A stretch of 63,103 bases of DNA, filler included, from Basidiobolus ranarum (lineage: Eukaryota), in the NCBI GenBank assembly GCA_040143965.1. It is 3 parts of 3 records of this genome, joined end to end, with 100 filler letters (N's around TTAATTAATTAA, not from the genome) between each part and the next. Parts side by side here need not be neighbours in the genome. Positions count along the whole stretch, not along the records: positions 42,169 to 63,103 come from JASJQH010000217.1; 2 more parts are not named here. The stretch is one strand, 5' to 3'. Position 1 is the stretch's first letter. Every line of letters starts with the position of its first letter. Both the position numbers and the translations under genes were made by a program. Below are positions 6,855-63,103 of the stretch, piece by piece. The notes below the pieces were generated by a model. The model did no database searches, was not told the DNA's origin, and saw only the letters and a list, made by a program, of their open reading frames with translations.

Positions 6855-7793
6855 TTAAAATATGCTAGTATTGAGGATTGTTGCGGACAACCATGATACA
6901 ATATCATATAAGTTATTGGCAACGGTAGCGCATTTATCGAATGTTAACAACATCTCCGAGGTTTGGGATGTTATTTCTTGACCTCCCTCATCAGAAGCTA
7001 CCCAGTAATCCTTTTCGAATATACCCAATTCATCTTCATCATATGCTGATAATATATCTGTGGAAGAGGACCAAGGATACTGATTTTCTCGGATGATAGG
7101 CTCCGGCTTTAACTTCGTTGGCTGAATTTTTAGAATAGTCGAGAAGGATTTACGAGTTGGATGCGTATGAAATATAATGCCTTCTTCATCTTCGCTAACA
7201 TCATCCTCATCCGAGCTAATGGCAACACATTGTTCTACTTGATTATTAAATCTCAGCTTAGGTCGATTGTCCTCGACTTTGATGGACTCTGGTCGTTCAA
7301 AAGACCCGACTTTACGAAGAAATACGGCAGATTTGGAAAGAGGTATGCGATTTAAAAACAAATCGCTAGAGTTGACCTTCTTAAGGACTGGTTTGAGTCC
7401 ACTAGGAGAGGTGGGAGACTTTAAGCATTCAGTATGAAGGATATTCCTATTTTGGGTATGGAAAGGTCCATATAGCCAAGTGATATCACTGTCTTTGAGC
7501 CTACATAAGCAAGAATGAGTTAATTGTACCAAGTATAAAAAGTCGTTTAAGAAATCTTACCAATTGAGCGATTCAGGAGTGACCGTTAAAAGGTTATTCC
7601 TTTGTTTTGCCCAGCTTCTCCAACAGGCATTCTCTAGGCGCGAACCATTATCAAGAGTTTTTTTTGATTTGGCAATGATTCTCCAAGACGCTGTAAGGTC
7701 TTCTTCTGTCCAGTTGTGAGATAGGTAGTCAACACAGACAGAGGGCTGTTCGGCAGGTATGGATTCCGAATATGACAGGTCGATGTGTTCCAT
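6855..7793 (-). CDS. DUF1752 / Reg1-like putative PP1 regulatory protein, 2 exons
   Basis: VDYLSHNWTEEDLTASWR...RLENACWRSWAKQRNNLLTVTPESLNW, an intron at ~7501-7560, then LKDSDITWLYGP and KLRFNNQVEQCVAI (RVxF-like site). Confidence 0.85.
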
Positions 7794-11303: not shown

Positions 11304-12316
11304 ATGCTGTGTGTTTATATTTTAGAGAATTTGACAGGAACTACCAGAACCTATGTAGGTTTCACAGTGGACCTCCGGAGACGCCTAAGAAAGCACAATC
11401 GAGAGATTGTAGGGGGGGCGAGAGCCACCGAAGGTAAATATTGATTACTTCGTTTATAGCTAGTCAGTATTTGACGATAAACTTTCTAAACTACGAAGGT
11501 CGTTTATGGAAGCCATTTCTAGTGGTTACTGGCTTCCATACCAAGAAATGTGGGCTACAGCTTGAATGGAGAATAAAACATCCCCCTAGAACATGGTCGC
11601 AGTCGCGCTCAACATCGAAAGTATCGGGTCGTCGACGTCGTCGTAAGAATAATTCGAAAAGTATTATATATCCAAAATCACTATTCCCTCAAGCCAAACC
11701 ATCGAATATTTATAAAGAGAAATTTGTCAAAGTTTCTTGTGCTAAATTATCCAAAAAACTGTATCTAGCACATGCAGTATGTGCTATCCTACACCTTGAG
11801 AAGTGGACCACAAATGCCATCCCTCTAGCTGAACAGGGGAATATAGTACTCCACTGGGATGAAATAGATGATCTGAAGTCCATCAAAGCTCCATGGCCAG
11901 AAAGTATCGAACATAAGCAATTCGATTGGGCAAATTTCATTACTCAACCTTCGACCAGAGTCAAAAAAGATACCTCTAAGGATTCTATTCAAACCTCTGA
12001 CACCCCGTCTCAAGAGTTCGTATTAAACATGCGAATTGATCAGGATATCAATACTCAATCGGATGATATACCTCCGAATCCAGAAGACTCTTCCTTTGCC
12101 TCGCCATGCACCGATTCCTCTGCATCGCCCCTGACCCCATACAATCAAGATCACAGCCAGATTACGCCAGAGTCTCCTCTGCAAGCGAAATCTAAAAGTT
12201 TTCTTTCCGAGTTGACTCAACCACTACCTTCACCAGAGATCCCGCTGTTTGGTTTAAGACGATCACCAAGAATTAAGCGTTTGAACGAGAGGTTACTAGA
12301 TGAGGCCAGGCTATGA
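11304..12316 (+). CDS. Slx1-like GIY-YIG structure-specific endonuclease, 2 exons (intron 11434-11498)
   Basis: Exon 1, absent from the ORF track, reads MLCVYILENLTGTTRTYVGFTVDLRRRLRKHNREIVGGARATE. It splices in frame to GRLWKPFLVVTGFHTKKCGLQLEWRIKHP. YVGFT, RRLRxHN, GGA and LQxEW are Slx1 motifs. Confidence 0.88.
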
Positions 12317-33785: not shown

Positions 33786-35360
33786 TTAGAATAAACAAAG
33801 TACCAAGTATAATGTGATGAAAAGGGAGGATGTTGAGCTGATGGTGAGAGATATCGCACTGCTATGTGGCACTTTGTTGTTCTGGTTTTGGGTACCAGCC
33901 AATCTTGCGCAATTAGTAGTGTCTTGCTTACTAGGGGTCACAACTGCACTCAAACCATCGAAATTACAAACAGTTTCCTTCTCACCATTCTTGGTATAAT
34001 ATTGATTAAACATATAAGACAAGCGTTGAGGTGTATCACAGGTAGAATATACTCCATAAGTACCAGTCTCACCATTGCTAGAGATAGCATCACAAGACGC
34101 CTCCCCACAGAGCCAGCTAAATAACTTCCCTACATCTACCGTAGTTGAATTGGTAGGTTTGGATGAATAGGCACATTTAAGTGTATCGGTCATACATTTA
34201 CAGACATCCTCCGAAGGTGTGCTCGGGAGTTTCGTACTGGCTTTCCAAGCGGCACCAACTTGTGGGCATTGGCTTGGCTTTCGGTTAGGATCAGCTGAAA
34301 ATGTATCCATATTCAACACCTTTGGACTGACTGCTGATAAAGCATTCTTGTAGTTATCGTAGTCGGGTCTTTTGGTCACTTCGCCGCTAGAGCTAATATT
34401 TACCAATCCATAGTTGTTATCTTCTTGGGAATACTCATATACGATCCCTCCAGAAAATGTATCCTCCATATCAGGACCGTAAATAGATTTAACTTCGTGG
34501 AAGCTACGCACGCCGCTAGTATTACAGCCATATTCGCTCAAAAAGATGGGAATGCTATAGTCGGCATATTCCTTGGTTCGATCAGCAAACCCGGAACTTT
34601 GGAAAGTCGCTTGATCCCCACACCAAGAGTAAATATTGTAACCGTAAAAATCGGCCTAAGTTCAAAACAATTAGTATATATGTATGATATAGTGCACAAT
34701 GAAATAGCCTTCACTTACCCTCTCAGAGTCATCACCACAGTTGAAATAGTGTGCGATATCAAGTCTAATATCAGCATCATCATTGGTTGAGTAACCGATG
34801 GGAATATACCTCGGCTTGGTACGCATATAGGCCTTCATGTCACGAATAACAGCTTTGACAAAGGGAGAAGAGGAGGTTGTAGGAATATCATTAGGAACCT
34901 CATTACCGGCAAAGAAACCAAGAACATTGTTGTATTTCGCGAAGGCATCTGCTGTCTTCTTGTAGTTGTCAAGTAAATCTATGTCATACTCAGGATCCTT
35001 ACGATTGATCGAGTAAGTAGGTGTGGCAATATCCAATACCAGGTAAATACCAGCATCTTCCAAGGCTTTCATACACTCATCGTGATTCAGAGTATGATCA
35101 ACCTGATAGACTCGAATAGTGTTAAGGCCCAAGTCCTTGAAGTTCTCGATGTCACGCTTACAGGTAACAGGATTTGCAAGTGGATCGTCCGATGTTCCAC
35201 GCGCTCCTCCTCGAGGCTGGTACGCAACACCTTTAATATAGAATTCGTTTTTGGTGACGCTGTCAAAGAACTTGTGTCCCTTAATAACAATAGGATTCAA
35301 CGCAGATGCTGAAGAAATATAAACCAGCGAGATCGCCGACAGGACTGATAGAACTCTCAT
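33786..35360 (-). CDS. GH72 1,3-beta-glucanosyltransferase (Gas1/Gel family) with X8/CBM43 domain and GPI signal, 2 exons
   Basis: FYIKGVAYQP, LGLNTIRVY, FFAGNEV, SEYGCN, FSGGIVYEY, Cys-rich X8 domain, hydrophobic tail; intron ~34657-34718. Confidence 0.96.
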
Positions 35361-36828
35361 GTGAATTAAAATTAAGATGGCTGGTTGTATATCCTAGTGT
35401 GACACCTTTTATATGGCAGGAAGCCATGTAAACAAATTCAAGTGTATATATAACGACATCGATTCTCGAAGGCCATTGGCTATTTGTTTCCCGCGAATTT
35501 CCAATTCAATCTGGCCATATATATATATATATAGAGATTAGACGTAACAGCTGCTATAGGCAGCCTATAGATTCTAGAAGACTTTGATTGAGCACATCAT
35601 GGTCAGCATTTCAATGCACAGCCATATCGAGTCTAGTAATAGAATTCTTTTGAATGCAAATCATTGAACTGAAAGCTTGATAGACTGGTGCCCAACTTTG
35701 TGCAAGATCCGCTCTCTGGGTTCACTTGCAGAATAGACATCTTTCATCAGCTGCTGCATCCAAAAGTGGATACCTCTCAGCGCCCATAGAGGTATATATG
35801 GTGTAAGGCATGCTGGTTGCTCGATCTAGGACTACCTATCTTGCAAGCGCTTTCATTGCAAGAATTCCTCAAACAAGTCATTATTCTGCAACCAGCGCGT
35901 CTGATTGAAGAAGCTTCATGTAACTAAACATTGAGATGAATCGCGATTGGTTGGCAAGGAAAATTGAAAAGTATCTCCAATCGATAAAACCGGATTAATT
36001 GACAAAACCAAGCTATATCCTGACATATCGAGGTAAATAGATTGAAGCCACATTATCGATGCGTTGCGTGCAAGCCAAGTGCACCTTGACATTAACCTGC
36101 AGGCCCATGTCAAAAGGTCATGCCATCAATGGCCAAGCCCTGGTCTACTGCTCCACTGTCAAATGATCTTACTTGACTATTGTCGTCAGCCTTAGTTAAC
36201 TAATAAAATCGAAGGGTATCTCGGTTCGTCAAACACTTCTCACAGTCTACATCGTGCTTGGTTCTAATTTAACAAATGTTGAGGTTGTTTACGCTTCCTG
36301 AATTCATCTAACTGGTTCGTTGAGACGCGCGCTCTATGACGTAAGAGAGTGGGTGAATGTAGCTGCTGAACTACTAGAGAATTTCTGCTGTTTCGGAATT
36401 TATCATCGACCTCTCTGTTTGGTGTGGTGTCATGTATTCTTTGTCACGTGAGAAACATTGCGATAAATCTAAGAGGTTAATCCAATCTAACTCCTCCATG
36501 GAAATTTACGGATTCATGAATTTTACAATTCTAAAATAAGGAGCTTTCAATGTTAATTTTATGTTACGGCCAAAAACCATTAACATAACCTTACTAATTT
36601 ATTTGTAACATCATTCCCTATCTTACCTTTTTCAATCATCTAGACCTTCTTTGACTTCTTATACTAGTTTAGTACCCCTTCAAAACCTAAAGAACCTTCC
36701 CTCTAAGCCAACTCGCTCTAGACCCAAAGCTATTTGGTTTTGAAATATCCCTGAACTGAGTAAGACTAGTCGTAGTACCGGGCTAATAGCAAAGAGCATC
36801 ACAAGTCACTTTACTTTAAAAAGATATC

Positions 36829-42168: not shown

Positions 42169-42169
42169 C

Positions 42170-47213: not shown

Positions 47214-48662
47214 TCACCAGAGGAAAAATGAATCTTGATCGGTCTGATCTGGAGACTCTTCTTCGAAGTCCGATTCGGAGTCTGGTTCAATATTGGATGA
47301 ATCTTGCCAGTTTGGAAGAATATCCGATAATGGTTTAGGGTTGGAATTGATCGAGTATCCTAACGTTTCTAGAATACTGATTAGCTGGGGGCCAATGGGA
47401 GAGTATTTGCTTTGCTTGACATTCTTGAGCTTTGCCTGTATTGAGCCAGGACCGCTCTTATATTTCATGACAAAGTCGGGTGAGTTTAGGTTACTCTGAT
47501 AGTCCAGGTGACATATCGAACTACCTTGGGTGAATCTACGTATAGAAGTTTCCAAAAAGATGGTTTCGTTAAGGCTTTGAGCATTTTTCGGTAAGAATGC
47601 GATGGTGTTAGGTTTGGTTCCTGAGTCCAATAAGTCTTGGGTGAGTTTCGACTCCAAAGTGTCTTGAAGTTTCCGGAATATCCCCCACCTAGAGGAGCCG
47701 GTTTCGTATCCTTGTGATAACAGTCTGTCGCTTATTTTGTCGGACATCTCTGTCAGCTTTGTCATACTAGGATACTCAACCAAGTACTGATCAAAGGCAT
47801 TCTCAGTGAAGCCCACAAATCGAGTACCACCGTTTCTTAGGGTTTGGAAGTTCGGTCTTGGTGTTAAGCCTGTCTTGAAGTAGTTATCCCACTGAGTAGT
47901 AAACCCTAGACCATGGATCAATTCATGAAGGATGACCGAGAGGAAATCATACTGTCGACGTCTAATGGGGTTCATGTCCTATATATAATATTCGAAGGTC
48001 AAACACAGTGTTCTCAAAACTAGATTGGAATTATATCCTACTGCTTGAAACCAGAATCTAGCTTCTGAATTGAAAGTTGCTTGGATGTCTACACCGCTAA
48101 ACTCTGGCAGCTCTGGAAGCTCCATCTGCTTGACCAATGCTTGGGGATATAGCCTGCGCTTACCATCGCTTCCTTTTAATTTCATACTTCTGGCTGGGCC
48201 AGCATAACCTACAAATACCACTTGGTTAGTATTTTCCACATTAATAGTGGCCATGAATACTAGGATGTGGAATTTACCTAACAGTGATGAGTGGCACCAA
48301 TCCATGTCTTCGCAATAGTTCACATAAGAAGCTTTGACATTCACAGTACGCTTGAATTCAATCACATTGCTCAATATATCGAAAGCTATCTGAAACGTTG
48401 CTCTGGCTTTCTCACAGGTGGCTGGGCTCTCCGTACATCTAAACGAGGATAATCTCATGGAAGAACGCTCTTTATCAGCGTCTTCTGATGGATTGGCATT
48501 GTTCCCTGTCGGGTTGTGGCATTCCACAGGAACGATATAGTTGGGTTCAAAGGAGTTTGGGTGTTCGTAACACAAGCCACCGGCAGCCACATCGTCCAAA
48601 GGAACTCCGGCTCCTCCTGCTATTAGTTTTACAAGGATGGTTAATAGTGCAACTTTATGCAT
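47214..48662 (-). CDS. Secreted putative zinc metallopeptidase (HEXXH), 3 exons
   Basis: Signal peptide, LYPQALVKQ, DIQATFNS, YDFLSVILHELIHGLGF, GSSICHLD, DFVMKY. Confidence 0.8.
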
Positions 48663-50115
48663 CGCACAGTGAGTTAATACAAGAGGTGGGGTTAAAGGGA
48701 AGGGTTAAGTGAGGGATTAGGCGAGGAATCCTTGGGAAAGTTGCCATCCATTTGATTTATATCAAAGACTTTGGCAGCATTTAGCCTATTTTGTTGATAG
48801 AGAATCAATATTTCGGAAAATAAGCTCTGAATGTTTGGAATCAACTGTGATTGATCGAATATCTTCCATACCCTCTATTATCATTATTCGAATGGATTTG
48901 GCACGGAGAATTTAAGGTTTAATCTGCTTTCTCACTGGTTCAGGTTAAGAATGGTCATCAAAGCTGGTTAATCATGTGGGTTATCTATTATCTAACCGAC
49001 CATTAACTTATCTCACCAGGATGATCAACAATGTATGATTTATGAATCCAGGCACACAGGCCCGTCTCCATAGGGGTTATGGCCTGAGGGATAATCTTGA
49101 ACAATACTCGGCTAGTAGTCGTGGTCAATGAACAATGCCAGACCAGATGACTTACCGAACAGCAAGGCGTGCTAGAGATAAGGCCATTTGCATCAGAGAG
49201 TAGAGCGGGCTCAAGTATAGCTATATTAAATGTATGTGATATCCCGTCACAATGGAGATTGTGTTTCAAACGGGTATGATGCATAGTGGATTGTGGGCTT
49301 CGTGGGGAGAATTTTCATCCCACCCCTAGCTTGAGCGCGTATTTGACTTGCTCTTTTGTAATTGGGAGCGTATGTACATGGTTCGGGTATCCATTCAATA
49401 GGAATCATTACGAATATGTAGAGCTAGCGTTCGCTTTCCCACCAGTGGTTGATTTCACGGAGTAGAGTGTGCGATTAATCTTGATTCCCTTTACGTTGAT
49501 ATCCATTGCAAGCATCCAAGCACCGCCACATATAGTGGGGCGTCTCAACCTATTATGTGTTTGGGGAAGTCAATAGCAAACGAGGACAATCTCCTTTGTG
49601 CCAAACAACTCTGTCTGGATCCCAACGTTGGAGGCGATATGATTTCATTAGTAATAAGTAAATATTAGGCCAGATCCAATAGACTGGGATCTGACATGTA
49701 CACAAGGATGATATTGTTGGATTGTGAATGATAAGATGTACCATGGGAAGAAGTGATGGTTTCATATGAAATGTGTAGTCGCAGTTGACAGCTGGTGAGA
49801 ACGCATTATGGATGGGTTACACATGCTACTTATGTGCAATACGGAAACCACTCCCTTCTCAATTCTCGAAAAAACCGGAATTCAGATGGGCACCCTCAGC
49901 AGGGCAATGCCGTGTGGTAACCGTAGTAGCACAAGTGAATAACGTAGACTGTGTTCTGTTGACTTTCCGGCCAGAAATGGGCTATTCAATGCAAGAGGGA
50001 TTTGACAACATTGATGTAGTGAATAAATAATGACCTTTGGTGTTTATTAAGCAAGTAATTCAAAAAGTATTGACTTGCGAGATTTAGGGTCACAAACTAA
50101 CCATACTAGATTTAT

Positions 50116-57632: not shown

Positions 57633-59442
57633 CTACAAGAATTCACGAGGACGATCACCCTTTCCACCCGCCTGGTCGAAAACGAGACCGGCAACCTTGA
57701 AAGCAAGTTCGTCACACTCATGACGAGTGGCTGCTTCAGCGTAAACACGAACAACATCTTCAGTACCGGAAGGACGAACAAATGATCTTCCATTATTATA
57801 TTTGGCTACCAATTGCTCTATCTTCGACTGCAATCCTTCGGGAGAAGCCAGAACTGTATCGGCTTTGATAGGCTTGAAGATGGTACGATCACTAACGACA
57901 ACCTTGCCCAAACGGCTGGGTAAATCGGTGTATGCTTGGTCCCATTCCTTCAAACTCCATTGACGGTGTGTAAGAATTGCCTCCACAAGCAACATATCAG
58001 AGATGGCATCACCAACTGCTTGATTAATAACCTCAGTTAATGCACGTAGTTGTTCAATAGCACTGGCTTGGGCGGGGGTACGGCCTTCAGCGGTATGAAT
58101 GGTGCGCATAGCTTGAGGGCTGAAGACAACGGTACCGTGACCGTTTGCCTCGAAATAGACTCCAACATCATATTTTTCAGCCTCGTGATGCAAATGTTTA
58201 ACACCAGTGCATGCAAATGAAACTGGAAGTCCCAGGTCTTTAGTGAGGTAGGCAGTAGAACTACCGTTGGCATATGCGGTTTGTACGACACCAACATTGA
58301 CTCCCTCCAAACCAGCGGCTTGAACCAATTCTCTGATGTACATAGAGGCCAAACCAGAGATTTTATCACCATCCAATAACTTGAAGGTCTTGTTGTCAGA
58401 GTCGACGTAGAAGTAGACAATGCGATCAGCATCACCATCATAAGCACATGCACGATCGCCATGAGTCAGAGTCAGCCCGCTAGGGAAGGTCTGATTAACC
58501 TTAACAAAGTCAGCACCACACTGGTGATTGAGCTTTCCAAGAGTATCAATATTATCGTTTACGATCTTGACTGAGATAGTGTCTTCACCAATGACTTGAG
58601 CCAAGTCACGAAGTTTAGGAGCGCCAACACCGTTAGCACAGTCAACAAACAATGGAGAAAGCTTTTGTTTTCCTTGGGTGAGCTTTTTGAATGCAACAGC
58701 AAGTTTGTTATAGTATCCTTCTTCGGTGGGTTCACCATAAGCTTCAGGAGTACCACTGGTATTCAAGCAGCGAACAACGTAATGTAATTGTGGTGTGGTT
58801 TTGATTTGGTGGTCAATGAACTCAGCATCAGAGGCCTTTAAACCATCAATTAAGGAGGAAACCAAAGCTGGCCCACTTGGTCTGGTATCACGAGCGAACA
58901 CAATTCTAGCTGGCTTGGATAAATCAATCTTGGCAACTGAAACAATGGATTCAAGCTCTTTTACAAGCTCCTCATCAGTAGAGGCGTTGGCAAGTTTGGT
59001 GGCATAAGCTTCCCAAGATTGTTCAAGCATTTCACCTAATGGATCAACAATTTTGACACCATTATCCTGTAGCAAAGTTGGGTTAGAAACGTATACCATA
59101 CACAACAATTACGACACAAACAAACAACATACCGGTTCAGGATTGTGAGAAGCAGTAATCATAATGCCGATGGTTTTACCATCAAGCTTTTTGGAACGAA
59201 GGACAGCTAAAAGAGCAGCTCTGAAGATAACAGAATCCAATAGCTCGGCTCTAATTTGAATGAATTAAGTTAATAAGAGGAAACACTCACTACATTGAGA
59301 TGGCCAAAGAGTTCAAACAAAAGTGCAGGAGAATAGATACATACTTCATACGGAAACCAGCAGTACCATACTCAAAAGTGATTCCCTCTGGCTTAGGGTG
59401 GGTAGCAGAAGCTTGCTTGATTTTGTTAAGGTCGAACGACAT
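57633..59442 (-). CDS. PCM1: Phosphoacetylglucosamine mutase (Pcm1/Agm1/PGM3), 3 exons
   Basis: [53 protein letters not shown]. Confidence 0.97.
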
Positions 59443-60077
59443 TATGATAATTGTAAAGGTGTAGAATTACAACGTGAACCTTTGAAATGCCAGGCTATTT
59501 AACTAGAGGATTGCGTACATTGTACATGACCTAAGGTAACACTCTAATTGGTAGTAATTATAACAAGACTGATGATTGGCTGTGGCTACTAGAGCGATAA
59601 CCTTCATGTTGTCCAGTATCCTAATTCGTCCATCTAAATAAATATAGCGTTGTTACAAATATAAATACTATTCGGCGATATTGCCAGCGATAAGCAAATA
59701 TTTTTGTAGATAATTAGTTCTAAAAAGGCATGGAAATTCATAACAAAAGGTCCGATTTCCATGCTAATGGATAGGTAAACAAGCGGTTTCACTTGGATTC
59801 AATGCGTAAACTGATAATAGTTGATCTAGAGTATTCGTCATACATCCCGATTCAAATCACTACAATACAAACCTAGATGCTTTTGTGCCCTATCGTATTA
59901 TTACCATAGGAAGCAGGGTTACTCATGCCATATGTGTGCGACCAACAAGCCCTAGAGTTGTGGAGAAGAGAGATTAGCTGCGAGTGGCATTACCAAGATT
60001 ATTTGATGCTCTATTATTATCCTAAACTTTATATGTGTTTATCGCTTACAAGCATTTAGCGGGCTAAGATATAACCC

Positions 60078-62052
60078 GTCTTGGTTCCAAAATCATCTAA
60101 CGCTACTGGCTGGCATGGTCTTCAAACAATTTTGGTTTGTGCACCTATTTGACGAAAAATATTAGCTTTTATTCTCTTTTCTCTCTTGTATCCCGGACAG
60201 TACCTTAAAAGGCCATGGCATTCTACAGTTGACATCTTGTTTCTTCTAAAAACTCTCGAGTTTGGAATAGTTTTGAATTTTTCCAATTCTGAGAGCTCAT
60301 ATTCGGGGAAACAACTTGAAGTGATGAACTTGTTCAACAACAGAACTTCGAACCCTTCTTTTCGCAGCATACGTCGCATTCCTTTCCCTCTAATTGACTC
60401 GTGAAATTTCACATTCGCAGATGACCGGTCACCTAATACTAAATAGCATCTCCGAATTTCCTCCTCAAACTGTTTGCTAATTTTTGGTCAGATTGTTGTC
60501 TATTAATTTTGTTGGAGAACTTGATTTTTCTGAAAGGTAATGCCAGTGATGGTGTCTGTCAAATCATCTACCTTTTTACGGCGATATTCGTACTCTTTCT
60601 TGGAAGTTTCTTCAGAGCTATTTAAACAATTGGTAGTTTCTTTTACTAAGGCATCCAATCTTTTATTTCTCGTCCATATTAAGCTTTGAAAAGTATGTTT
60701 ATCTTGAAGGACAGCACGAACGCGATCCTCAGATAGTTTGAAATTGCGCTGAGTTTCGGAAAGAGCAGCAGTGTGATCAACATCAGCAAAGCTAACAGCA
60801 GCAACGCCTGCGACAACATCAGCAGTATTATCTTCATTAGTAACCGACTCTACTTCAGTAAGACCTTCCCGACGCGGAACTCCAGCATTTAACTCCAAAG
60901 GAACCGTATCTTTCATTATTACAATAGTAGCTTTTTAGTGCCTTTGAAACACTGGCTTTTATCTTGAAGTACTCGATAAAATTTTCAGTCATCACTGTTG
61001 AAGCAGGTGTTTTAATAAGATGATTTTCAAGCTCTTATTAGATTAATGACATTACCCCAAATATCGACCTTGTTTCCAGTGAAATTCTTGTTTTTCAATA
61101 TATGATAGTTCAAAATCTTGGTATCTATTGTCATATAAGAAGGGATAAAGCCTTTTCGCAGTGGGAAGCAGTTAAACGATTCCATATCATTCTCTTCGCA
61201 TACTTTTACGAGCATATAAAATGCGCGTAAATGTTGCTGCGGGTTTGCTTTGACGTCGTAGTAAACAGAGCCCTTTGCCAACTTGTAAATGTCAGGGTAA
61301 ACATCCAAAGAGTTTTGAATCTGATGCACAGCCATGTCATCCAAGAAATTTGCTGGAGCCGTTGGTACAGTTCTTGAAGATATTTCTGATTTAATCTTAT
61401 TGCAGACATCAAGTATATTGTCTTCGACTGAAGTTTTTATTTCCTCTTCTGAGCAGCTGTTGCTTTTTATATCTTGAGTCAGCTTCTCGATCTGCTCTTT
61501 TTTTCGTAAAACCTTGTTTAGAAACATTCTGAGACGATTTCCAAAGTGAAGAGCTACATTATTAATGTAGGCGGTATGAATCTTGGTGCTCTCATAAATT
61601 GTTATTTGTTGAACATTTGCCAATTTAATAGGTGCATAAGAAGCAAGTTGACAATATTCTTCTTTATAAGTGTTTATTTTCTCTCTCGCCTGACGCACTT
61701 TGGCTGAAAGCAGGGATTTGCCGGTCGTACTTCCATCTCTGACCCGTTTGTCAATAAGAGACACAAAGACTTCACAAAAAATCTTTTGTCACATATTCTT
61801 TCAAGCCGAATTCATTGTCTTTTGCAAACTCTTTTATAAAGATGAATTTTAAAAAGGCAAAACAACTCCTTTAGTACGGGCCTGTATTGTTCCTTCCATT
61901 CAATGGTAGACACCAACATCTTGACAGTCATTATTCTCTTAACGGTTGACGAAGAACTCTTTAGCTTCCTGTAAAAGCAAAAGATATATAAGAACAAAAA
62001 GTGTGACTGTTCATGTATGCTATTTATTTACCTATAATGTTTCTTCTGACAT
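60078..62052 (-). pseudogene. Decayed Fanzor1 (TnpB-like RNA-guided endonuclease) gene with introns
   Basis: Fragments in order: WKEQYRPVL; FLKFIFIKE...TKDFCEVFVSL; TAYINNV..HFGNRLR; YYDVKANPQQH; FPLRKGFIPSYMTIDTKIL; LPFRKIKFSNKINRQQSDQKLANSLRRKFG; VLGD.S..NVKFHESIRGKGMRRMLRKEGFEVLLLNKFITSSC; HGLLRCTNQNC; FWNQD. Frameshifts, stops and deletions throughout. Confidence 0.85.
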
Positions 62053-63103
62053 AGTGTAGTATAAAATTATGTATGGGAGATAAAGTGGAAAAAAAGAAAA
62101 AGAAGCATGTAGGTTATTTTTGAAGATAAATTAGTTTGTTGACGACATGCGTGGATGTGACGCTTTTATAGAGTTTGAATGGTGTGAGAATTTAAAAGCA
62201 TTTAGACTTCACTCAGCCTCCAAGGGATTAACCAAAGAGCTAGAGTTGCCAACCTCATGAAACAATGCTGAGATCACATTGCATATATATTGAGAAATAG
62301 CACACTGACATGTTTGTGCCAAGTCAAATATCTATGCTTAACAAATTGTACTCAGAACGCTAATTTAGTGGAGTAGACCGGAAATCTTTGGGATACTCAT
62401 CTTGTTCTGTGCAGAAACATGCCGCATCTAATGTGTTAATTCAATAGTAGTCGAAGTGCCTTTCTAGTGAGATTTCCCTCACATGACATCTCCTACTATG
62501 AAGATTGCCACAACTAGTAGAATTCGTCTCATTTATAATGATGGGTTTTGACTGGACATCATTGTTTTTGCGGGTTCTCGTGCTACACGAGAATACTAAA
62601 TCGCCAACTTCAGGCAAATCTCGTTTACTTGCACATCCACGACATCAGTTTTATCTTTATACGCGGATACCAAAATATGCAATACAGTTGGTGTATTACC
62701 TAACACTGGTTGTGCATTCTGTTTCGAGGTAGTGTATGATAAGTCCATCGAACCTACAGCTGTGTGCATCACAGAGCATATCATGCGCCAGCCAATGGAT
62801 GAGAAAGTGATCAAGAGACATGAATAGTCATATCGCACTTACAAGACTAATGCTAACTTTACGGTGAACAAACAACGTTTGTACTCTGAGCAGATTAGAT
62901 GACTGAGTGACTCTCTAAACCAGTATCCATTCAAGACCACTTTTGTCATGAATGTGTTAGGTGCCCGACTGGGAGTGGATATGAAACCTCGAAGAATACA
63001 CTGTGAAGCTCATGAGACGGAACATATGTGAGCGCAAAGGAAGAGCGGTAAGGGTAGGTGATTAGAATGCGAGCTCTCAGTTACACTACATACGGATATA
63101 TCG

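Follow-up and report, generated by a model that had tools for sequence, protein, structure and literature searches.

A degenerate Fanzor1 gene in Basidiobolus ranarum with its nearest relatives among Mucorales

The window, by which we mean the whole stretch of DNA analysed here, is 63,103 nucleotides (nt) from the fungus Basidiobolus ranarum (assembly GCA_040143965.1), made of three joined parts, and its positions 42,169 to 63,103 come from JASJQH010000217.1. On the minus strand of that part, from 62052 to about 60039 and roughly 600 bp upstream of the AGM1 (phosphoacetylglucosamine mutase) gene, lie the remains of a gene for Fanzor1, a eukaryotic RNA-guided nuclease related to TnpB and Cas12, in pieces that occupy three reading frames. 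A preliminary description, made from the sequence alone, had read four seemingly unrelated open reading frames (ORFs) and several frameshifted pieces as one Fanzor1-type protein, and we found these to be collinear with full-length relatives and to match the Fanzor1 enzymes of Parasitella parasitica (PpFz1) and Spizellomyces punctatus (SpuFz1). The motifs it had named (LPFRK...KFG, VLGD.S, LNKFITS, SSCFP...CTNQNC and WNQD) are all on the minus strand at the places it gave. Its extent of 60078-62052 stands at the ATG at 62052, but the 3’ end lies about 40 nt further on, at a TAA at 60041-60039. From 5’ to 3’ the relic consists of the following features.

62032-62052, minus strand: exon 1, the ATG at 62052 and five further codons (MSEETL), interrupted by an in-frame TAG at 62034-62032.
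61969-62031, minus strand: predicted phase-0 intron 1 of 63 nt with GT..AG boundaries, the AG preceded by a pyrimidine tract.
61863-61968, minus strand: N-terminal piece, reading EAKE in frame -2 and, past a frameshift near 61960, KLKSSSSTVKRIMTVKMLVSTIEWKEQYRPVLKEL in frame -3.
61775-61861, minus strand: frame -1 piece FAFLKFIFIKEFAKDNEFGLKEYVTKDF, just after a deletion of about 32 nt.
61027-61788, minus strand: open frame of 253 amino acids (aa), frame -2, ending at TGA 61029-61027; N-terminal of RuvC-I and REC/WED by position.
61021-61036, minus strand: deletion junction, where RuvC-I, including the catalytic Asp (CVLIDPGRRD in relatives), and the final WED strands are gone.
60906-61034, minus strand: piece LENHLIKTPASTVMTENFIEYFKIKASVSKALKSYYCNNE in frame -3, whose place in intact relatives is downstream of RuvC-I; profile E=4.1e-10.
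60541-60911, minus strand: variable insert, frame -1, between YYCNNE and LPFRK, part of a 143-aa ORF at 60503-60934.
60445-60555, minus strand: piece LPFRKIKFSNKINRQQSDQKLANSLRRKFGDA in frame -2, flanked by a frameshift at either end; profile E=4.9e-12.
60540-60526, minus strand: LPFRK, after which KFG follows.
60204-60442, minus strand: frame -1 piece that spans VLGD and RuvC-II and ends halfway through the TNB zinc finger.
60439-60428, minus strand: VLGD.
60340-60314, minus strand: RuvC-II, LLNKFITSS.
60313-60296, minus strand: CFPEYE, the first Cys pair, degraded.
60145-60203, minus strand: predicted phase-2 intron 2 of 59 nt, with GT..AG boundaries and a CTAAT branch-like site.
60039-60144, minus strand: last exon, with CTNQNC, an in-frame TGA at 60095-60093, WNQD and a degenerate tail to the TAA at 60041-60039.
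60143-60126, minus strand: CTNQNC, the second Cys pair, retained.
60089-60078, minus strand: WNQD, the RuvC-III remnant.

The minus-strand stop-to-stop ORFs, of 71, 253, 143 and 121 aa, together with the shorter pieces in other frames, follow the order of a full-length Fanzor1. When all chains of the Protein Data Bank (PDB) were searched with phmmer, the 253-aa ORF (61027-61788) matched PpFz1 (9cf0_P) with E=6.9e-62 and SpuFz1 (8gkh_P) with E=3.1e-8, and the 121-aa ORF holding RuvC-II and the zinc finger (60122-60487) matched the same two chains with E=3.4e-18 and E=3.8e-7, respectively; homology to Fanzor1 extends across both the REC/WED and the RuvC/TNB parts. We also searched with tblastn, using 20 database homologues as queries, among them two Rhizopus microsporus proteins, P0002 (761 aa) and P0001. 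Residues of P0002 fall on the window as follows.

61949-61863, minus strand: P0002 residues 15-43, 66% identity.
61743-61048, minus strand: P0002 residues 47-260.
61031-60912, minus strand: P0002 residues 373-412, 50% identity.
60778-60540, minus strand: P0002 residues 494-572, a weak match with an EYEY stretch in common.
60540-60442, minus strand: P0002 residues 573-606, 68% identity.
60442-60203, minus strand: P0002 residues 607-675.
60146-60078, minus strand: P0002 residues 675-694.

A profile of nine homologues recovers the same pieces as tblastn, the main one with E=9.9e-112, and together with the matches to Fanzor1 PDB chains this bears out the assignment to the Fanzor family.

The changes of frame noticed earlier are for the most part lesions, but two of the interruptions, the step from 60203 to 60145 and the gap after the first seven codons, have GT..AG boundaries and are better read as introns. 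Intron 1 is predicted from its own sequence and from the uninterrupted reading of a sister copy elsewhere in B. ranarum, P0335. Intron 2, likewise predicted, accounts for the shift between frames -1 and -3. Four of the nine aligned gene models (P0001, P0018, P0019 and P0007) continue as Y... after GLL[RK] and seem to read into an intron at the identical site.

What remains after removal of the two putative introns is not a continuous reading frame, since it contains seven frame changes that no intron-like gap explains, two of them coinciding with deletions, and two in-frame stops (TAG 62034-62032 and TGA 60095-60093). The frame changes include those near 61960, at 61862 and near 61780, and further ones near 60910, 60545 and 60443. 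Where the relic has the TAG, the gene model of P0335, which begins MLGEETLEEAEKSF, has Glu, and over the N-terminal piece (61863-61968) the two copies are 84% identical. The change at 61862, with its deletion of about 32 nt, has cost the relic AHNVNDLVTHT, which P0335 retains. The frameshift near 60910 parts the variable insert from the piece before it (60906-61034); another sister copy, P0182, 94% identical to the relic over that preceding piece, has YYCNNEDMTPLELNAGV in a single frame.

Two of the three catalytic residues have been lost. At about 61030 some 112-120 codons are missing: residues 261-372 of P0002 and positions 318-437 of the profile have no counterpart in the relic, and the matches that flank the gap abut at 61021-61034. 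The missing profile segment includes the I-D-P-G-R motif, of which D400 and P401 are invariant in all nine homologues, and the invariant I-D-P-x-R-x-D lies within the 120 absent positions, so the RuvC-I catalytic Asp has gone with the segment, and the deletion that the preliminary description had put near 61020 is upheld. In RuvC-II an AAG (Lys) codon at 60331-60329 stands where Glu (E681) is invariant in the nine homologues. The zinc ribbon has CFPEYE in place of the FCPECE of its relatives, in which C688, P689 and C691 are invariant, and no longer has two complete Cys pairs. RuvC-III retains its Asp in WNQD, yet this motif is two codons behind the in-frame TGA; N-R-D is present in all four of the nine relatives whose models extend this far. 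The WED strands (KALKSQNAKTMKFEGTIETDGVGMSILK) absent from the relic are still present in both P0182 and P0335, which makes the large deletion peculiar to the copy in the window, although the P0182 gene model too skips RuvC-I, through deletion or through annotation.

Because RuvC-I is deleted, the RuvC-II Glu is replaced by Lys and the frame is broken by frameshifts and stops, the copy is dead, as had been claimed on the grounds of the RuvC-I deletion and the missing Glu. We are highly confident that 62052-60039 on the minus strand is a Fanzor1 pseudogene, a member of a B. ranarum family with six or more degenerate copies. The relic is without sign of present function and is ordinary as a kind of object. 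The 3’ end of a Fanzor1 transposon is transcribed into an omegaRNA. An intact Fanzor1 binds the omegaRNA of its transposon, finds in DNA a short target-adjacent motif (TAM) together with a match to the guide, and then cuts with a RuvC site made up of an Asp from RuvC-I, a Glu from RuvC-II and an Asp from RuvC-III (Saito et al. 2023, PMC10432273; Xu et al. 2024, PMC11423790). With about 115 codons, the RuvC-II Glu and half of the zinc finger gone, and with its frame broken, the copy in the window is incapable of this.

It could be argued that the locus is still alive, either as a spliced or recoded gene or through its 253-aa frame, retained as a stand-alone REC/WED-like protein. That frame has stayed open inside an otherwise shattered gene, its last 166 codons are publicly annotated as a hypothetical protein (P0141, 61027-61527), and the two introns look genuine. 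The other frame changes, however, are without GT..AG gaps, and the matches on either side of them abut or overlap; the RuvC-I segment is physically absent; the 253-aa frame has no start codon before residue 88 and no known stand-alone counterpart. The sister copies P0182 and P0335, moreover, are broken at other places than the relic, as expected under neutral decay. We consider a living locus very improbable and keep to the reading of a dead pseudogene.

In a HMMER scan against 1.84 billion representatives, 517 matches reached E<=0.001. Besides the 166-aa annotated ORF of the window itself, the closest were four short B. ranarum proteins, and a further search added a fifth. These five (P0149, P0172, P0182, P0207 and P0335) lie each on a different contig, none is intact, and they are 74-86% identical to the relic and 38-67% identical to the Rhizopus copies. 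The preliminary description had supposed a family whose intact members and omegaRNA may exist elsewhere in the genome: the family is there, but these fragments include no intact member, and none of the protein-database searches returned a Basidiobolus protein longer than 213 aa. Judged from annotated proteins, then, the known Basidiobolus copies all look degenerate. It follows for annotation that K7432_016632, K7432_016194, K7432_007029, K7432_011096, K7432_013685 and the 166-aa model in the window, currently entered as short ‘hypothetical proteins’, are fragments of one dead Fanzor1 family.

The nearest proteins from outside Basidiobolus are R. microsporus P0002 (60% identity), R. microsporus P0001 (55%) and Rhizopus stolonifer P0142 (55%); P0007, a near-copy of P0002, is 65% identical to the relic over 142 aa. 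In NCBI taxonomy Rhizopus belongs to Mucoromycota, and B. ranarum to Basidiobolomycota. We built trees from two separate parts of the gene. For the REC/WED part, 57 of the 167 matched proteins spanned 195 or more of the 253 query residues, which with the window gave 58 rows and 260 columns. For the C-terminal part, 33 of 47 qualifying rows were kept (14 near-duplicate cluster members were dropped), giving 34 rows and 124 columns; here the two pieces from the window were joined by X, and P0007 served as stand-in for P0002, which fell below the coverage cut.

In the careful maximum-likelihood REC/WED tree the window pairs with P0002 (support 100/97), and a quick tree agrees. Adding P0001 and P0142 makes a four-row clade with support 100/99, which sits in a clade of 22 rows (98/96). 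Ten of the 21 other rows in this larger clade are named, and all ten are Mucorales (Rhizopus, Gilbertella, Thamnidium and Helicostylum), whereas the Fanzors of Coemansia (Kickxellales) are in the other main clade. In the C-terminal tree the window groups with P0007 and P0001 (90/84); the clade of 11 rows that encloses them (99/97) also takes in Rhizopus arrhizus and Mucor flavus. The approximately unbiased (AU) test rejected a topology in which the 21 rows are held together without the window (delta lnL, the difference in log-likelihood, 58.5, p=0.00021). The resemblance to Mucorales Fanzors that had been noted is supported, in that the relic nests among Mucorales Fanzor1 proteins beside the R. 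microsporus copies, and the horizontal transfer that had been raised as a possibility gains support from a Basidiobolus host carrying a gene nested in this way.

That the closest relatives are in another phylum, in Rhizopus, suggests a cross-phylum transposon jump. We think it somewhat more probable than not, from the placement of these sequences, that a Fanzor1 transposon passed from Rhizopus-like Mucorales into Basidiobolus, reached at least six copies and died out. On this reading, horizontal transfer of a transposon would have brought the family from a Rhizopus-like donor among the Mucorales into the lineage of Basidiobolus, where it would have multiplied and then decayed neutrally. Basidiobolus is known for gene transfer from bacteria (PMC7466969, PMC10079182), and it shares domains that are otherwise of Mucoromycota type, such as CotH (PMC10079182).

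The alternative is vertical inheritance, in which an ancient Fanzor1 lineage of the common ancestor of Basidiobolus and Mucoromycota was lost elsewhere and no transfer took place. Transposon families contain many old paralogous lineages, and the Rhizopus copies themselves diverge by up to 60% (P0001 and P0002 are 40% identical over their full length). Set against this are the nesting of the window in a clade whose named members all come from four genera of one order, the log-likelihood cost of forcing it outside that clade, and the recovery of the same neighbours from two separate parts of the gene. The identity between the relic and P0002 is also close to that between P0001 and P0142 (58%) and higher than that between P0001 and P0002, while AGM1, a conserved housekeeping enzyme, is merely 62-68% identical between the hosts. 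The nested placement favours horizontal transfer, since vertical descent makes no such prediction even if Basidiobolus is sister to Mucoromycota. We regard vertical inheritance as unlikely, if by some distance the most credible of the alternatives.

A number of observations weigh against a Mucorales-derived transposon family that has died out. As to the trees, 11 of the 21 other rows of the key clade are without a species name (Logan, JGI or ENA), a position of the window outside the three Rhizopus rows was not rejected by the AU test (delta lnL 17.1, p=0.0675), which would also suit vertical descent, and both of the groups tested were picked after inspection of the tree. The placement of Basidiobolus is itself unstable: it is called a ‘rogue’ taxon and comes out as sister to Mucoromycota in one phylogenomic study (PMC10079182), again as vertical inheritance would have it. 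As to the family, its copies are known from annotated proteins only, and unannotated intact ones may exist. As to the protein, no family in the local Pfam set meaningfully matches any of the four relic pieces, and even the intact relatives match PF07282 below its cutoff (E=7e-4 to 2.4e-3). As to the transposon, no omegaRNA was found, with no Rfam match in 59000-63103, and the 3’ flank (59900-60145, minus strand) folds no better than shuffled sequence (z=-0.29); neither terminal inverted repeats nor a target duplication were found around the relic, which leaves the transposon undelimited.

If the transfer from Mucorales did take place, it would be a concrete and datable case of the spread of Fanzors from eukaryote to eukaryote, which Saito et al. 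2023 (PMC10432273) proposed in no more than general terms, and this would be the first Fanzor family described in Basidiobolomycota. In the full-text library searched, no paper mentions both a Fanzor and Basidiobolus, though the supplementary tables of the Fanzor surveys may list Basidiobolus entries; the relic places Fanzor1 in a phylum for which that search yielded no Fanzor mention. The nesting among Rhizopus copies is a testable and moderately interesting signal of transfer between phyla.

That the host is Basidiobolus and not a Mucorales fungus follows from the adjoining AGM1 gene (57633-59466, minus strand), which at 57633-59108 is 100% identical to B. ranarum K7432_005477; its identity is 88-89% to two other Basidiobolus proteins and 62-68% to named Mucorales orthologues. 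This bears on the idea that the relic is Mucorales DNA misjoined to a Basidiobolus contig by contamination or an assembly artefact, to which the Mucorales affinity of the nearest relatives lends some colour, as does a G+C content of 0.37 in 60001-62000 when the three preceding 2-kb bins have 0.42-0.44. The relic, with 55-61% identity, is not near-identical to any Mucorales protein; its neighbour, some 600 bp away, is a gene that matches B. ranarum at 100%, and five more copies are on other contigs of the same species. An artefact of this kind is exceedingly improbable, and we take the relic to be a resident of the B. ranarum genome.

Among solved structures, PpFz1 (PDB 9CF0-9CF3) is the best match for both of the large relic pieces, and the order of motifs is alike. 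PpFz1 has an FRI domain between RuvC-I and RuvC-II, and the relic has an insert at that position. We place the FRI domain after YYGNET, on an assumed offset of about 370 residues for the MBP tag. The 143-aa ORF in the middle of the relic gave only chance matches when compared with the PDB, the best being TRIM25 (E=0.36); this insert occupies a hypervariable position and is at most a candidate counterpart of FRI. In the passages of Xu et al. 2024 (PMC11423790) used here, the FRI domain is reported solely from Parasitella and Rhizopus, and PpFz1 is described as an active omegaRNA-guided nuclease with a 5’-ATN TAM and a 75-nt omegaRNA. The relic, by contrast, is broken by frameshifts and stops, and its RuvC-I is missing and its RuvC-II Glu replaced by Lys.

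The nearest full-length relatives are the two R. microsporus proteins P0002 (BCV72DRAFT_303884, 761 aa) and P0001 (RHIMIDRAFT_283552, 742 aa), to which the percentages given above refer over the 253-aa frame; over the C-terminal part P0007 is 61% identical. The R. microsporus copies are sisters of the relic in both trees and have in common with it the apparent intron site after GLLR. They differ from it in retaining the RuvC triad motifs (IDPGR, NEY/DEF and WNRD) in an open frame, and in belonging to another phylum. SpuFz1 (PDB 8GKH) shares family and domain order with the relic, but its matches, though significant, are weak, and it is far more distant. SpuFz1 is an active enzyme for which both the omegaRNA and ‘ghost’ loci of it are known (Saito et al. 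2023, PMC10432273). Nothing comparable was found at the relic. Weak matches to TnpB/Cas12f (PF07282, Cas12f1-like TNB) come from the intact relatives of the relic and none from the relic pieces, and the relic, unlike TnpB, is a eukaryotic gene with introns.

When the four ORFs were compared with Pfam, the hits to Kbp-5 (E=0.012) and S-antigen (E=0.18) were both at chance level and were set aside. P0001-P0020 carry in a large protein database the Pfam label PF26935.1, which is not in the local Pfam set; a Fanzor-specific Pfam model may thus exist.

Repeat pairs near the relic (five direct and five inverted, of 14-21 nt) do not frame it consistently and are put down to chance. No transposase ORF is within reach of the relic, the window ending 1 kb upstream, and there is no second copy of the relic within the 63-kb window, where the best tblastn match outside 59500-62600 has E=0.34. 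The window as a whole is gene-rich fungal DNA, with a GH20 hexosaminidase, a GH72 glucanosyltransferase, a PL14 lyase, an MMM1-domain protein and AGM1. B. ranarum has a second AGM1 copy, K7432_004906, at 89% identity (the copy of B. meristosporus is at 88%), which is consistent with the regionally duplicated genomes reported for Basidiobolus. The GH72 glucanosyltransferase, which has an X8 domain (33786-35393, minus strand), is divided between two adjacent ORFs; the profile match runs to position 207 in one ORF and picks up at 207 in the other, and a single short intron is thus a more probable cause than damage. Four ORFs of 233-292 aa, at 6855-7556, 11438-12316 and 47214-48704, have no Pfam match at E<=1e-5. 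The AT skew over 60001-62000 is -0.106, the most extreme value in the window.

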